Assembly (NCBI GenBank): GCA_021161825.1
Contig: JAGGZW010000130.1
Location: 1,503-65,502 of the forward strand
From: Thermoproteales archaeon
GTDB lineage: Archaea > Thermoproteota > Thermoprotei > Thermofilales > B69-G16
Length of the DNA: 64,000 nt
Reading direction: 5' to 3'
The translations under genes were made by a program, and so were the position numbers. The notes under the pieces were generated by a model. It worked only from the letters and a program-made list of their open reading frames with translations. It searched no databases and was not told the DNA's origin. This document shows, piece by piece, positions 5,011 to 64,000 of this stretch; the first letter of the stretch is position 1; the number at the start of each line of letters is the position of its first letter.

Positions 5011-6750
5011 TCATCGTCGCCCATATCTTCTATATAAAAACGCTAAAGCCACTATTATGAAAACGACTGTAATAAGGCTTAAATAGGCTATTTCTTCTCG
5101 TGGTTTAACATTAACTCTGAGCGATCGAGCTATTGTAGCCGACGCGGATTCTATCTTAAATTCTACGAAATAATCTCCACTTGGTATCTCTGGTTCTACG
5201 TTAACGACTAATGTAAATCGTCCCGTCTCACCAGGCATTAATAAAGGAATGTCCTTAGGCTCTACGTTAACTTTTATTTTTTGCGGAGTATCCGTGATAA
5301 TGATCCTAAGATTGCTTATGACTGTATGACCTGAATTTTTAACATCGACGTAAAACTTTTGTTTTGATCCAGCAGTTGTCTCTAAATAAAAATTCTCAGT
5401 GAGAACCTTTAACTCATATCTTCCGAGTATGTTAATTCCCAAATTTATCTTAGCCTCGCTAGTCTCACCTTTTGCCGTGAGGGTAAACTGAACAAAGCCA
5501 GGCTCAGTTCCCGTGGGAATAAGGATATTTATCTCTAACTCCTCTTCACTACCACTTTCGAGGAACAGCTGGTTTACTATATTTCCCTTTTTATCTCTTA
5601 TCGTAAAAGTGTAAGTTTCCGGCAAATCCTTCACATCAAATGAAACTATTGTGCCTGAAAGCCCTTCATTTCTAACTTTTATTTTAATATTGGCCATGTT
5701 TCCAGCATATGCGCTTGTAAAAGGATGTGTTGAGAAGAGTTGAATATCGTCGTAACCTTCGACCACATGAATAGTGAAATCTATCGTCGAGCATACTCCT
5801 AATCCGCAAGCTCGCAAGGTAATGATTTCCTTGCCGTATTTTGCATCGGGGGGGATTCTAACTTTTATGAAAGCAGACACGCTTTCATCTGGTTCGAGAA
5901 AAACTGTTGTAAATGACCTATTTGAATTATCTCTTATGTCTGTTCTCCAATTCTGGGGAGCATCAACTGAAAGTTCTAAAACCGCTCTTTCACCTAGATT
6001 ATTTACGATCTTAAAGTTGAAAATAACTTGACTATCTCTTAGGGCTGTCGCATCTATGAACTCAGCTTCTATCAATTTCCAGTCCTTTTTCTCTACTATA
6101 ACTTCTATAGGAGCTTTATGAACGAAAAAACCCCTTATGATTAAAGTAATGTTATAGCTTCCCAGTGCATTTCTTGGAACTTGAACTTTTAAATTAAAGG
6201 TTTCTCTGGCTCCAGGAGTTATCGAAAAACCTTCAATTCTTAGGCCGTTACTTGAAACAAACTGGGCACGCCAATCTGTTGGTGTTTTTATTTCAACAAG
6301 GCATGTTTCCTTTTCATATCCATCGTTCATAATTAATACTGGAATTTGTAAGAATTCCCCTTGTTCAGTTCTAAATATATTCCCACCGGGTATGATCTTT
6401 ATCGAGTAATCGAGTATAATCTCGCCCATCCAGTAAGTTAAGGCAGTTTTCGAGGAAAGATCTAGCTTAATTTCCTTAACTTCGTAGCCATGCGCTTGAA
6501 ATCTTACTAAAACAACTTCTCGTTCAACATAGAAACTAAATGTTCCTTCATTTCCGGTTTCTGTTTGGAAAATAAGGACATCATTGCGATATATTTTGAC
6601 CTGAGCATCTGATATTGGATTTCCGTTTATATCGATAAGCTTTCCCCTGACATTAATTTTACCATTATATGAGTAAAATGTGGGTATAGTGAATAATATT
6701 ATAAATATTTCAATTACTAATAGACTTGTATTTCTCCTCAAAAACATCAC
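5011..6750 (-). CDS. membrane-anchored surface protein with carboxypeptidase-regulatory-like and repeated Ig-like (CARDB/NEW3-like) modules
   Basis: N-terminal hydrophobic signal/anchor and C-terminal TM (ITVVFIIVALAFLY) followed by RRYGRR. About four ~100-aa repeats end in patterns such as GSYNITLIIRG, GKEIITLRA, GFVQFTLTAKG and GDYFVEFKIES. The stop abuts the stop of the convergent epimerase gene (5010/5011). Confidence 0.6.
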   Translation of the reverse strand: MMFLRRNTSLLVIEIFIILFTIPTFYSYNGKINVRGKLIDINGNPISDAQVKIYRNDVLIFQTETGNEGTFSFYVEREVVLVRFQAHGYEVKEIKLDLSSKTALTYWMGEIILDYSIKIIPGGNIFRTEQGEFLQIPVLIMNDGYEKETCLVEIKTPTDWRAQFVSSNGLRIEGFSITPGARETFNLKVQVPRNALGSYNITLIIRGFFVHKAPIEVIVEKKDWKLIEAEFIDATALRDSQVIFNFKIVNNLGERAVLELSVDAPQNWRTDIRDNSNRSFTTVFLEPDESVSAFIKVRIPPDAKYGKEIITLRACGLGVCSTIDFTIHVVEGYDDIQLFSTHPFTSAYAGNMANIKIKVRNEGLSGTIVSFDVKDLPETYTFTIRDKKGNIVNQLFLESGSEEELEINILIPTGTEPGFVQFTLTAKGETSEAKINLGINILGRYELKVLTENFYLETTAGSKQKFYVDVKNSGHTVISNLRIIITDTPQKIKVNVEPKDIPLLMPGETGRFTLVVNVEPEIPSGDYFVEFKIESASATIARSLRVNVKPREEIAYLSLITVVFIIVALAFLYRRYGRR

Positions 6751-6883
6751 ATTTTCACAAAGACTCTATATTAATAAGAATTTCTCTTGTAAAAGGCTAG
6801 GCTAATAATATTATACAATATGACAAAATTTAGTTATCTTCTAAGGGAAAGTTTTAATATAAACTTTAATTAGACTACCCAGT

Positions 6884-44818: not shown

Positions 44819-44913
44819 GGGCCCGTAGCTTAGTAAGGTAGAGCACCCGGCTCTTAATTTAGACACCCAAAGGAGAGACCGGGGGGTCGCGGGTTCAAAT
44901 CCCGCCGGGCCCG
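44819..44913 (+). tRNA. tRNA-Lys(CUU) with ~21-nt canonical intron
   Basis: GGGCCCG-TA-GCTT..GAGC-A-CCCGG-CTCTTA[ATTTAGACACCCAAAGGAGAG]A-CCGGG-GGGTC-GCGGG-TTCAAAT-CCCGC-CGGGCCC-G. Confidence 0.9.
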
Positions 44914-58671: not shown

Positions 58672-59021
58672 GGGGTTAGCCGATCGTAACCCACCTTCTG
58701 TTTTAGCGGAATCTGTCTAAGAGCCTACCCGAGCCTTCCCACGGACCTCATCGGCTCTGTTTGGCTCTGAACCCGCGGGGCGGCCGTTTCATCCTTTCCT
58801 ACATTCTCGTCGACGGGTTATCTCCGTCCTGTTGCCAGGACGGTTCTCGGCTTAACGCCTCGGCCGTCTCATTCTCATGGAATGTAGGAGGTCTCGTTTC
58901 TGTGCCGTTGCCTAGGGTTTCCCCCAGCGCCTCGCAGCGCCACGGGTCCGTGGACGTGGTGGAGTTTCCTCAGGTTGCCCGTCGCCGTGGCAACCCGAGA
59001 TCCGCCCGTCGGCTAACCCCC
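58672..59021 (-). ncRNA. rnpB: RNase P RNA (archaeal type A-like)
   Basis: 350-nt GC-rich island. P1 is GGGGTTAGCCGA/TCGGCTAACCCC, and P3 is the hairpin GGTTGCC..GGCAACC. CR-I is TGAGGAAACTCCACC. CR-IV/V is AAAACAGAAGGTGGGTTAC, whose GGTGG pairs with the CR-I CCACC (P4). Confidence 0.85.
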
Positions 59022-61513: not shown

Positions 61514-61605
61514 CGCCCCGGCCGGGATTTGAACCCGGGTTCTGGCGGGATCTGCGCTTAAAGCTTGACAGCCGCCCATACTCGACCTGGCTATACGACC
61601 GGGGC
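61514..61605 (-). tRNA. tRNA-Asp(GUC) with ~16-nt intron
   Basis: GCCCCGG-TC-GTAT..GTAT-G-GGCGG-CTGTCA[AGCTTTAAGCGCAGAT]C-CCGCC-AGAAC-CCGGG-TTCAAAT-CCCGG-CCGGGGC-G. Lies ~90 nt downstream of the 23S 3' region on the same strand. Confidence 0.85.
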
Positions 61606-62058
61606 GTAGAGTAGGTTAAAGAACCTACAAAAAACACAAAGTCCACAAATTTAAGTTTTTCTGCCAAAATTAGCGTTAATTAAATAGAGAAGCCGTATAC
61701 AGCCCATGCACGCATACGCCCAAGTCCACACCCAGCAAACACAACACCTCGGGCTATTGGGAGTGGCCAGCTCACGCCTCGGCCGAAGCCTCGGCGCTTA
61801 CACCGCCACCCCATCAACCCTGTCTTCTACAGGTGCCCTCGTCCCGGTCCCGGAGAGTCGTCGCCGACCCCCAACGGACCGGGAATGGCCGCCTCGTCTC
61901 GGGGAGGGCTTCGGGCTTAGATGCCTTCAGCCCTTATCCCTTACGGCGTGGCTGCCCGGCGCTGCCCTGCCGGACAACCGGTAGACTAGAGGCCGCGGCC
62001 CGCCGTTCCTCTCGTACTGAGCGGACCTTCCCCTCAGGCGGCCAACACCCCCGACAGG

Positions 62059-62093
<35 letters not shown>

Positions 62094-62127
62094 TCTCACG
62101 TTCCCCTTTAATGGGCGGGCAGCCCCA

Positions 62128-62816
62128 TTCAAGGGGGAGAGCCGTGGCCGGATAAGTGTTTAACCAGGCTTACATCGTAATTTAAGGAAATTATATTTTT
62201 CAACAATCTTGGGGTGAATGGGGTTGAATATCTGAATGAATTTTTCGATGTTTTCCCATCCTCTTATCCTTACCTTATATATTGTTTTTCTATTCCCTTT
62301 TCCTAGATGTTTTGTTACTGTAACGTTTACTCCTTTTCTCTTGATGTATTCCGCAATGCTGTAAATGAGTTCTTTGTTTGTGTTCGCTACTTCCAAGACT
62401 ATTCTGCATTTTTTATCTATATATACCGTTCCTTCAGCATCTGTCAGTCCTGTTACAAAGCTTTTAACTGGTTTTCTTTGTCTAATCTTTATTCTTTTCT
62501 GAATTTCCTCGTATAGGGATTTAGATGTTACTTGTAATCGGTAATAGTTCTTCTTTTTACGATAGATATGAGCATTTATCTTGAATATCTTTTGTATTAT
62601 TGTTTTCAGTTCTTTAAGGTATTCATAGCTATTGTCGTATATGTAGATGTAGTGAGTGTTTCCTTGTCTATAGAGTGTTCCATCCCCTATTATTACTCCT
62701 GCTAAGTAGTTGTAGGTTGTTCTTATCCTACACATATTCACCCCTATTAGAGTAAGCAAACGTATTTAATGCAGTTCATATGTGATCGTGATAACTTTCG
62801 GCCACGGCTCTCCCCA
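62128..62816 (-). mobile_element. archaeal (BHB-spliced) rRNA intron, 689 nt, encoding a LAGLIDADG endonuclease
   Basis: Outer helix GCAGCCCC/GGGGCTGC, central 4-bp helix CAAG/CTTG, and 3-nt bulges GGT and AAT. A 17-bp inner helix is GGGGAGAGCCGTGGCCG/CGGCCACGGCTCTCCCC. The joined exons read CAAGGG|TGGGGCTGCCCGCCCATTAAAGG, colinear with bacterial CAAGGGTATGGCTGTTCGCCATTTAAAG. Boundaries +/- 2 nt. Confidence 0.85.
62160..62759 (-). CDS. double-motif LAGLIDADG homing endonuclease (I-DmoI-like architecture)
   Basis: Two dodecapeptide motifs, YLAGVIIGDGTLY and FVTGLTDAEGTVY, about 95 aa apart. TTG at 62759 or ATG at 62735. Entirely inside the intron. Confidence 0.85.
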   Translation of the reverse strand: MLTLIGVNMCRIRTTYNYLAGVIIGDGTLYRQGNTHYIYIYDNSYEYLKELKTIIQKIFKINAHIYRKKKNYYRLQVTSKSLYEEIQKRIKIRQRKPVKSFVTGLTDAEGTVYIDKKCRIVLEVANTNKELIYSIAEYIKRKGVNVTVTKHLGKGNRKTIYKVRIRGWENIEKFIQIFNPIHPKIVEKYNFLKLRCKPG

Positions 62817-62865
62817 CCCTTGGGGGCTGCTGCACCCCCAGGATGGGAAGAGCCGACATCGATGT

Positions 62866-62906
<41 letters not shown>

Positions 62907-63428
62907 TCTGTTATCCCCGGGGTAACTTTTCTGTCATGCCCGGCCCCCACCGGAGGGGGCACGAGCGTTCGCTAGGCCGCGGTTTCCCGGCCGGACCCGT
63001 TATGTTCCGGGGTCCGGTCAAGCCGGCTTTTGCCCTTGCACTCTACGGCGGAGCTCTGACCCGCCTGAGCCGACCTTTGGGCGCCCGTGTTACCTTTTCG
63101 CGGGCGTGCCGCCCCAGCCAAACCGCCCACCTGACGCTGTCCCCCCGGGTTCTCCCCGGGGGTAAGGCCTCCGGGCTGCGGTGAGTGGTGTTTCATTGGC
63201 GCCTCCCCCACCCCCGGAGGGGTGGGTTCACTGGCTCCCACCTACGCTACGCACCGCAGCCCGGAGGCCAACGCCAGGCTGCGGTAAAGCTCCACGGGGT
63301 CTTATCGCCCTGCGGGGGGTTGCCGGCCTGTGCACCGGCTCCGTGTATTCACGGGGCCCCGGGCCAGGACAGTGGGGACCTCGTTGATCCATTCATGCGC
63401 GCCGGAACTCACCCGGCAAGGCATTTGG

Positions 63429-63938
63429 CTACCTTTCTCCCGGGAGGTCCCGCCGCCTGGCGATATGTGAATTAATAATTGTGATTATTTCTTCAAGACT
63501 CCTTTTTCTACGAGCTTTTGAGCTGAGGCTTGATAATTCATATGCTTTAGAAACCAGTTCTTTGAGTTTAATATGGTTTTTATGTAGCCCTTTACTGAGT
63601 GAAAGAACTATTTCTCTGAACATTAGGTATTGTTCTTTCTTTATACTTAGCAGCTCTATATAATTATCAAGGAACGGAATTAATTTCTCGGTGAGTTCAG
63701 CCATATTATCTATTATGAGTAAGTATAGGTGTTTTTGTCCAGACTTCCTGATTATTCTTCCTGCATTGATTATTTTGCTTATTAGTTCTAATGGTTCCTT
63801 TTTTGCTTGTGTAATGCTGAATACTGGGTCTAGCCTTACTCCGTATGCTAGGTCTTTTTGAATTTTTATACTTACTGAGAAACTGGCTTCTGCATCTATG
63901 AATCCCAACACATAACCAATTATTAGGTCTTTGTTCAT
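63429..63938 (-). CDS. single-motif LAGLIDADG homing endonuclease (homodimer type)
   Basis: N-terminal IIGYVLGFIDAEASFSV is the only dodecapeptide motif. 169 aa. The last sense codon and the TAG stop use the downstream exon bases GGTAG. Confidence 0.8.
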   Translation of the reverse strand: MNKDLIIGYVLGFIDAEASFSVSIKIQKDLAYGVRLDPVFSITQAKKEPLELISKIINAGRIIRKSGQKHLYLLIIDNMAELTEKLIPFLDNYIELLSIKKEQYLMFREIVLSLSKGLHKNHIKLKELVSKAYELSSLSSKARRKRSLEEIITIINSHIARRRDLPGER

Positions 63939-64000
63939 TTCCTAACCCCTGGCTACCAATTTACAGCCAGGAGCTAATAAGCTTTACTTTTAGCCAGGCG
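63434..64000 (-). mobile_element. second archaeal rRNA intron (5' boundary beyond the window end)
   Basis: AT-rich ORF-bearing insert ending ...CCCGGGAGAAA immediately before the exon GGTAGCCAAATGCC. The universally conserved upstream exon block (..ACTCTCTTAA) is absent from the window, so the 5' junction lies past 64000. Confidence 0.7.

Follow-up and report, generated by a model that had tools for sequence, protein, structure and literature searches.

Introduction

A helix-bulge-helix-bulge-helix arrangement is the canonical substrate of the archaeal splicing endonuclease, and monomeric LAGLIDADG homing endonucleases make a double-strand cut with 4-nucleotide (nt) 3′ overhangs at the intron-less allele. 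Both are combined in the 23S ribosomal RNA (rRNA) intron of Desulfurococcus mobilis (Desulfurococcales), which is of the bulge-helix-bulge type and encodes I-DmoI (PDB 1B24, 2VS7), a monomeric two-domain LAGLIDADG_3 enzyme of ~190 amino acids (aa) with an Asp and a Glu as catalytic acids. Here we describe an element that resembles this intron in the type of its splice motif and in coding for a monomeric two-domain enzyme of the same family and similar size, with Asp and Glu as predicted catalytic acids, and that occupies positions 62128–62816 on the minus strand of a 64,000-nt stretch of DNA from a Thermoproteales archaeon (GenBank assembly GCA_021161825.1, contig JAGGZW010000130.1, positions 1,503–65,502), hereafter called the window. 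With a probability of about 0.9, we interpret it as a bulge-helix-bulge intron of archaeal rRNA that is mobile and carries a homing-endonuclease gene.

Small hairpin introns lacking an open reading frame (ORF) were reportedly described in 1991 by Kjems and Garrett at conserved places in the 23S rRNA of Staphylothermus marinus, within domains IV and V; their splice-motif exon pairing is said to be incompatible with the mature fold, leading to a conformational switch after splicing. The same exon-pairing logic is seen in the element presented here and in its 39–52-nt derivatives. Another well-described group comprises the introns at position L1927, represented by I-Vdi141I of Vulcanisaeta distributa (PDB 3E54) and I-ApeKII of Aeropyrum pernix, which carry LAGLIDADG genes and recognize a pseudopalindromic, functionally fixed target in the ribosomal DNA (rDNA) (PMC2602781). 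These are likewise mobile archaeal 23S introns with a LAGLIDADG gene, but their enzymes are single-motif homodimers (LAGLIDADG_1) acting at helix 69, whereas the enzyme considered here is a two-motif monomer encoded at the A-loop. For A. pernix, the work of Nomura et al. (2002), as relayed in PMC2738675, describes one rDNA position with ORF-bearing introns together with shorter deletion derivatives.

Results

Location and boundaries of the insertion

The archaeal large-subunit rRNA model of Rfam (RF02540) matched the window at 61737–64000 on the minus strand with 792 bits, corresponding to the 3′ part of a 23S rRNA gene that is interrupted by the window end. In this alignment, 696 nt are placed against 7 model positions (model 2645–2653, helix-92 loop), leaving 689 nt extra, while the sequence on both sides, which belongs to the peptidyl-transferase region, is near consensus. 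The GC content falls from ~0.68 in the rRNA to ~0.33 in two AT-rich islands, one being this insertion (0.35 over its full length) and the other extending from ~63435 to the window end; the GC content of the window genome is 0.37. The insertion point lies in domain V after the equivalent of Escherichia coli 23S G2545 at the base of helix 92, which forms the A-loop, and is called L2545 in the following. The next base is U2546, and helix 92 opens two positions on, at 2547. The E. coli numbering was anchored on Um2552, G2553, pseudouridine 2580 and A2602 and cross-checked by a second intron of the same gene that landed on the published L1927 site. The first-pass annotation, made from the letters alone, had placed a 689-nt 23S rRNA intron at 62128–62816 just upstream of the A-loop hairpin; these coordinates are exact, both by the extra length in the Rfam alignment and by the canonical cuts described below, the position relative to helix 92 is as stated, and the strand is minus.

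A canonical bulge-helix-bulge junction

Read as RNA, the junction has the order GCAGCCCC-CAAG-GGU-GGGGAGAGCCGUGGCCG ... CGGCCACGGCUCUCCCC-CUUG-AAU-GGGGCUGC. Its exon-exon helix is formed by GCAGCCCC (62823–62830, minus strand), which in the mature rRNA provides the 3′ strand and loop of helix 91, and GGGGCUGC (62119–62126, minus strand), which provides the 5′ strand and loop of helix 92 and contains the equivalents of Um2552 and G2553; all eight pairs are Watson-Crick. The 5′ bulge GGU (62816–62818, minus strand) and the 3′ bulge AAU (62127–62129, minus strand) follow on opposite strands and are separated by the central helix of four base pairs (bp) between CAAG (62819–62822, minus strand) and CUUG (62130–62133, minus strand). 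The intron is closed by a perfect 17-bp helix between GGGGAGAGCCGUGGCCG (62799–62815, minus strand) and CGGCCACGGCUCUCCCC (62134–62150, minus strand). Two 3-nt bulges on opposite strands with a 4-bp helix between them and flanking helices on either side are thus present (hBHBh′), as defines a bulge-helix-bulge intron. This arrangement had been proposed in the first-pass annotation with the same helices and bulges, and a base-by-base check of the 8-bp, 4-bp and 17-bp helices confirmed every pair as Watson-Crick.

Cuts after the second base of each bulge, that is, at predicted splice sites between 62817 and 62816 (5′) and between 62128 and 62127 (3′), delimit the intron as exactly 62816–62128 and join ...CAAGGG to UGGGGCUGCCCGCCCAUUAAAGG, which equals the Rfam consensus. 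The predicted spliced product reads ...CCCCCAAGGG joined to UGGGGCUGCC. Measured against the Rfam consensus, the joined exons restore helices 91 and 92 and the conserved block around them, in agreement with what had been anticipated from the window sequence.

Introns at the same position in other archaea

Related loci were gathered by a protein search, which returned 10 homologues of the ORF, by contig look-ups, by a genome scan and by one metagenome scan for the 3′ junction sequence. The genome scan gave no match with the single window protein and five loci when repeated with the family alignment; two loci from this rescan, L012 and L013, were rejected as same-site introns since their LAGLIDADG domains lie inside protein genes, in an intein-like context in the case of L012. 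In total, 17 further loci with an intron at L2545 were obtained (L001–L006, L009, L014–L021, L023 and L024), giving 18 with the window. Not counted among them are L007 and L008, which are shorter contigs with the same intron as L006, and L010 and L022, which end before the 5′ junction. The carriers are hot-spring-type archaea and, where the record names the organism, metagenome-assembled genomes (MAGs) of Desulfurococcales/Desulfurococcaceae. The window host is itself placed, by its rRNA and by these homologues, as a low-GC relative (0.37) of Desulfurococcales MAGs; neither version of its ORF nor the product of a nearby 496-aa gene had an exact match in the protein collection searched.

The splice motif is retained throughout this set. 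Scoring only the inner six pairs, the exon helix was compatible at 6/6 in 18/18 loci, the central helix paired at 4/4 in 17 loci and at 3/4 in L003, and the canonical cuts yielded the identical mature junction CCCAAGGG+UGGGGCUGC in every one of the 18. The 3′ bulge varies between AAU, AGU and AUU, its last U always being the first exon base. CUUG is present in all 18 compared loci, an invariance that is no independent evidence because CUUGA belonged to the search patterns by which loci were collected. With almost no variation, the exon and central helices are uninformative on selection. The closing helix covaries across the family: among seven distinct junctions, both sides had changed in 11 of 15 pairs, pairing reached 95% in register against 41–64% when the partner strand was slid by 1–3 nt, and none of 2000 column shuffles attained the observed pairing. 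These compensatory changes show that the structure of the closing helix is maintained by selection.

The comparison also settled the exact intron ends. In the window, the TGGGG at both junctions leaves 5 nt of uncertainty in the boundary. This is removed by the introns of L003, L006 and L020, which begin with A, the third base of their 5′ bulge being A instead of U.

A side observation concerns the overlap of coding sequence and splice motif in GC-richer relatives. In L002 (1527–1529) and in L009, which has the same sequence, the reading frame of the endonuclease takes in the 3′ arm of the closing helix and ends at the UGA made up from the central-helix CUUG and the first bulge base, so the two overlap completely; in the window, the stop codon is located 9 nt upstream of the closing helix.

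The intron-encoded LAGLIDADG protein

The intron contains a gene for a two-domain LAGLIDADG homing endonuclease of 191 aa plus stop codon at 62160–62735 (minus strand), as assigned from Pfam, the family alignment, the ratio of nonsynonymous (dN) to synonymous (dS) substitutions and the predicted fold. Motif 1, YLAGVIIGDG (residues 10–19; 62679–62708, minus strand), includes the catalytic Asp18, motif 2, FVTGLTDAEG (residues 93–102; 62430–62459, minus strand), includes the catalytic Glu101, and they align with the first and second motifs of I-DmoI, respectively. D18 and G19 are invariant in the family alignment of 11 sequences, and so are D99, A100, E101 and G102. The two motifs and the family had been recognized in the first-pass annotation, while its length of 199 aa does not stand: it came from a mechanical TTG-to-stop ORF, and all 10 homologues begin at MC(R/K), pointing to the ATG at 62735 and a protein of 191 aa.

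Pfam LAGLIDADG_3 (PF14528) matched the protein in two stretches with E = 1.4e-20 and 73.8 bits against a cut-off of 22.5 bits. The closest solved relative in a PDB sequence search was I-DmoI, with E = 7e-7 for the single sequence and 3e-15 with the family profile. An AlphaFold model based on the 11-sequence alignment (predicted local distance difference test, pLDDT, 94.5; predicted template modelling score, pTM, 0.90) has the order alpha-beta-beta-alpha-beta-beta-alpha twice (H-E-E-H-E-E-H), and Foldseek placed I-DmoI first with this fold (E = 1.5e-10, TM-score 0.67–0.74, ~26% identity), followed by PI-PfuI and I-Tsp061I. I-DmoI is thus the best match in both sequence and structure. Compared with the enzyme of L001, to which it is 88% identical, the window protein has a dN of 0.06 and a dS of 0.85 (ratio 0.07), and third codon positions account for 59 of the 85 differences. 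Judged from these sequences, the ORF encodes a working protein under purifying selection in the lineages of the window and L001.

Upstream of the start codon, an A/T-rich TATA-like box, ATTAAATA, lies at 62763–62770 (minus strand), 28–35 nt before the ATG, as a possible internal promoter, and a G-rich Shine-Dalgarno-like run, GGGGUGA (62738–62744, minus strand), ends 2 nt before it. Most other ORF-bearing introns have an A/T-rich box ~25–38 nt before the start within otherwise different sequence, the best TATA-like box of L023 being further upstream, and most of those compared have a run rich in G within the ~15 nt preceding the start codon, which is weak or absent in L006. Together, these elements suggest that the ORF may be served by a promoter and a ribosome-binding site of its own inside the intron.

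For the enzyme we predict a DNA target in the joined exons, around the boundary of GCAGCCCCCAAGGG and TGGGGCTGCCCGCC within 5′-GGTGCAGCAGCCCCCAAGGGTGGGGCTGCCCGCCCATTAA-3′. This target is near-palindromic (GCAGCCCC...GGGGCTGC) because the same complementarity builds the exon helix of the RNA motif. The insertion differs from that of I-DmoI, which is located in domain IV and not in domain V before helix 92. What we take to be the I-DmoI target sequence is uninterrupted, with one mismatch, at 63398–63422 (minus strand) of the window, and the L2545 intron is located ~600 nt downstream of it in the rRNA. With another insertion site and an uninterrupted I-DmoI site in the same gene, the predicted target is therefore unrelated and the protein is not an I-DmoI orthologue, in line with the initial suggestion of a distinct pair of homing endonuclease and site.

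Evidence for mobility and decay at L2545

The L2545 site is occupied in 18 loci and empty in L011 as well as in the Rfam consensus. Over 399 columns of rRNA, the window is 80–83% identical to every relative, and L001 is 88–90% identical to L002–L005. By contrast, the endonucleases of the window and L001 share 88% identity with each other and only 45–50% with the rest. The phylogenies of intron and host are thus incongruent for the window and L001 as far as these alignments reach. The intron of L001 has a GC content of 36% within a 51% flank, against 35% for the window intron in its 37% genome. These data point to a probable transfer between a low-GC lineage and that of L001 after the hosts had diverged.

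Introns at this site form a graded series. Intact genes are found in L015, L016 and L023 (672–707 nt), decayed genes in L014 (frameshift, 669 nt) and L018 (truncation, 654 nt), and internal deletions in L019 (210 nt) and L021 (224 nt), whereas L020, L017 and L024 are bare hairpins of 39, 47 and 52 nt, respectively, in which the splice motif is kept. The series follows the expected cycle of invasion, degeneration and loss of an endonuclease gene. It parallels the A. pernix series in extending from 707 down to 39 nt, though at other sites and with other endonuclease lineages; the A. pernix derivatives, according to the account cited above, came from isolates and natural populations, and the L2545 series was drawn from metagenomes and MAGs.

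Other introns and neighbouring features

The second AT-rich island of the window 23S rRNA gene is a further intron in the helix 69 region, extending from beyond 64000 to ~63435 (minus strand), with its 5′ junction outside the window. It ends in A directly before AGGUAGCCAAA, which is the published L1927 site (PMC2602781), and contains an ORF for a 169-aa single-motif LAGLIDADG_1 protein (63429–63938, minus strand) that is an orthologue of I-Vdi141I (PDB 3E54, E = 3.8e-41). This ORF stays open across the 3′ splice site, and its stop codon is the TAG within the exonic GGTAGCC.

In many relatives, a mini-intron follows the equivalent of A2534 (L2534) in the helix-91 loop, 11–12 nt upstream of L2545. 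Carriers are L001 (~121–164), L004, L005, L009 and L011, and also L014, L015, L017–L021 and L024, which have ..AAGCCCCC in place of GCAGCCCCC in the exon preceding the L2545 intron. Where copies with full sequence were examined, the mini-intron is ~43–100 nt long and canonical, with a central helix GCAG/CUGU and the bulges CAA and AAG. Together, the L2534 and L2545 introns leave a micro-exon of ~11 nt between them; the window is without the L2534 intron. Domain V of the 23S rRNA of L011 (1340–2470, an uncultured Desulfurococcaceae MAG) is rich in introns: besides the helix-91 mini-intron, an AT-rich intron of ~210 nt without an ORF interrupts the A-loop itself after GGGGCU (~U2552), two inserts of ~40–55 nt lie near 2590 and 2603, and an intron directly upstream of the sarcin-ricin loop encodes an endonuclease that is 36% identical.

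At two highly conserved positions of the peptidyl-transferase region, the window 23S rRNA has a base that neither the Rfam consensus nor any of the relatives shows. At 62094 (minus strand), GAGCUGGG is changed to GAGAUGGG, a C to A exchange at the equivalent of 2579 that creates a G.A mismatch flagged as non-canonical by Rfam, and at 62077 (minus strand), CGUCGUGAG is changed to CGUCGCGAG, a U to C exchange at ~2596. These bases could be real variation, sequencing errors or the scar of past intron traffic nearby.

The gene neighbours TiaS, a beta-CASP RNase and the archaeal RNase P RNA, which is complete at 58675–59017 (minus strand; RF00373, 171 bits), fit an archaeal chromosome. A tRNA of 92 nt at 61514–61605 (minus strand), ~130 nt downstream of the 23S 3′ end, is matched by Rfam and missed by ARAGORN, which in turn reports a 95-nt unassignable 'tRNA-???' at 44819–44913 (plus strand). 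Both are of a length that suggests tRNA genes with introns, on which the same splicing endonuclease would also act.

Discussion

The element at L2545 belongs to the same kind as the I-DmoI-encoding intron of D. mobilis and leaves the accepted picture of archaeal introns unchanged. In the mechanism that we propose, the 689 nt would be transcribed within the 23S precursor, the exon flanks would pair with each other and not as helices 91 and 92, and the intron ends would form the 17-bp helix, so that exon and closing helices present two 3-nt bulges 4 bp apart. The tRNA-splicing endonuclease of the host would then cut after the second bulge bases (62817/62816 and 62128/62127) and an RNA ligase would join the exons, after which the flanks could refold as helix 91 and the A-loop hairpin, while the intron would be released, probably as a circle. 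The 191-aa I-DmoI-related enzyme would in turn cut intron-less 23S genes at the joined-exon site, and repair would copy the intron in. We infer the expression of the ORF, DNA cleavage and the exact DNA target from the established behaviour of the family.

Several points weigh against this interpretation as a mobile, spliced intron. RNA cleavage and ligation, the exact cut sites and circularisation are likewise deduced from how the family is known to behave, and a probe search of the 64-kb window gave no tRNA-splicing endonuclease gene, which is no surprise in so small a part of a genome. When the 756-nt precursor is folded to minimum energy, the closing helix is retained but the exon flanks go into the mature hairpins of helices 91 and 92, and in most loci the energy model favours a slipped register CAAGGG/CCCUUG of 6 bp (62816–62822 with 62130–62136) over the canonical 4-bp helix plus bulge by 1–4 kcal/mol. 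With constrained energies on mini-substrates, the canonical conformer was compatible in 18/18 loci and cost 1.0–3.7 kcal/mol above the minimum-energy fold; the motif was judged by such energies together with explicit pair checks, minimum-energy folding alone being a misleading test of it. The slipped pairing may be a regulator of splicing or a by-product of the G/C-rich ends. The preference of the exon flanks for the mature hairpins implies that the 3′ strand of helix 91 and the 5′ strand of helix 92 must stay in the alternative pairing until splicing. An exon pairing alternative to the mature fold was reportedly already described for archaeal rRNA introns by Kjems and Garrett in 1991. On the side of mobility, the incongruence of intron and host rests on ~390 nt of rRNA and 6–7 taxa, and L003 also has an AT-rich intron in a GC-richer host (0.37 vs 0.59); because AT-rich endonuclease genes are common in GC-rich hosts, the GC argument is weak and the direction of the transfer uncertain. 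Finally, the enzyme may have lost its activity or taken on a different role.

As a side observation on the splicing machinery, the contig of L001, the closest relative, carries a tRNA-splicing endonuclease gene (Pfam tRNA_int_endo) at 6451–6824 (minus strand), ~5.5 kb downstream of its intron-bearing 23S gene.

Among other explanations, an intron that is still spliced but no longer mobile, with an endonuclease kept for another reason or freshly inactivated and with vertical inheritance only, is unlikely. The many decaying copies at L2545, from the frameshift of L014 and the truncation of L018 to the derivatives of 39–224 nt, indicate that loss of activity is common, and if a whole population carries the intron, no empty target remains. 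Yet a dN/dS of 0.07 with both catalytic acids and most fold-defining residues invariant speaks for an enzyme in use in the window and L001 lineages, whose intron and host trees moreover disagree, and since the archaeal splicing pathway needs no maturase, an alternative role is not evident.

It is highly improbable that the insertion is a lineage-specific expansion segment retained in the mature 23S rRNA, for which solely its position within the rRNA speaks. A single base separates it from helix 92, within the peptidyl-transferase centre, and the A-loop strand would be sequestered in the exon-exon helix; it has 35% GC against 68% for the rRNA and encodes a selected protein; and the inserts at this one site range from 39 to 707 nt, always with the splice motif kept, while L011 and the Rfam consensus are empty. 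A self-splicing group I or group II intron with a LAGLIDADG gene, a combination known from organelles and some archaea, is just as hard to credit. LAGLIDADG genes are typical of group I introns, which have been reported in archaeal large-subunit rRNA at 1923, 1931, 2500 and 2593 (PMC6125680). Nevertheless, an Rfam scan of the intron with permissive filters gave no match to Intron_gpI, to a group II intron or to any other family even at E ≤ 10, the ~80 nt on the 5′ side and 32 nt on the 3′ side of the ORF are too short for a ribozyme core, and the 39–52-nt derivatives retain just the bulge-helix-bulge motif. An insertion resembling a transposon or a miniature inverted-repeat transposable element, with the perfect 17-bp inverted repeats at the window termini and TGGGG at both junctions as a 5-bp target-site duplication, has a negligible chance of being correct: there is no transposase, the 'inverted repeats' covary as an RNA helix and are not conserved in sequence, RNA-level excision restores the exact consensus rRNA, and the introns that begin with A (L003, L006 and L020) lack the direct repeat, so it is a coincidence of a closing helix that starts with GGGG.

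Returning to the mobile bulge-helix-bulge intron, a literature search that did not extend to catalogues of archaeal 23S intron positions found no report of an intron at L2545 or adjoining positions. We tentatively propose, at somewhat less than even odds, that L2545 is an uncatalogued rDNA homing site, that the protein founds a thermostable I-DmoI-like lineage of meganucleases with the GC-rich near-palindrome GCAGCCCC-CAAGGGT-GGGGCTGC as target, that the element is moving between distantly related Desulfurococcales today, and that the whole life cycle of the endonuclease is represented at this site.

The 23S gene of the source genome has at least two introns, and its mature rRNA and endonuclease genes should be annotated accordingly; primers and probes across the A-loop region will fail on organisms with such introns. 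The I-DmoI family, in use for meganuclease engineering, would gain as a further scaffold a small monomeric LAGLIDADG enzyme that is probably thermostable and has a new GC-rich target. The series from an intact mobile intron to a 39-nt relic, together with probable horizontal transfer, is useful for studying the life cycle of archaeal homing endonucleases. The hairpin responsible for positioning the A-site tRNA lies one base from the element, whose predicted splice motif holds the strand of that hairpin in an alternative helix; ribosome assembly would therefore have to wait for splicing.

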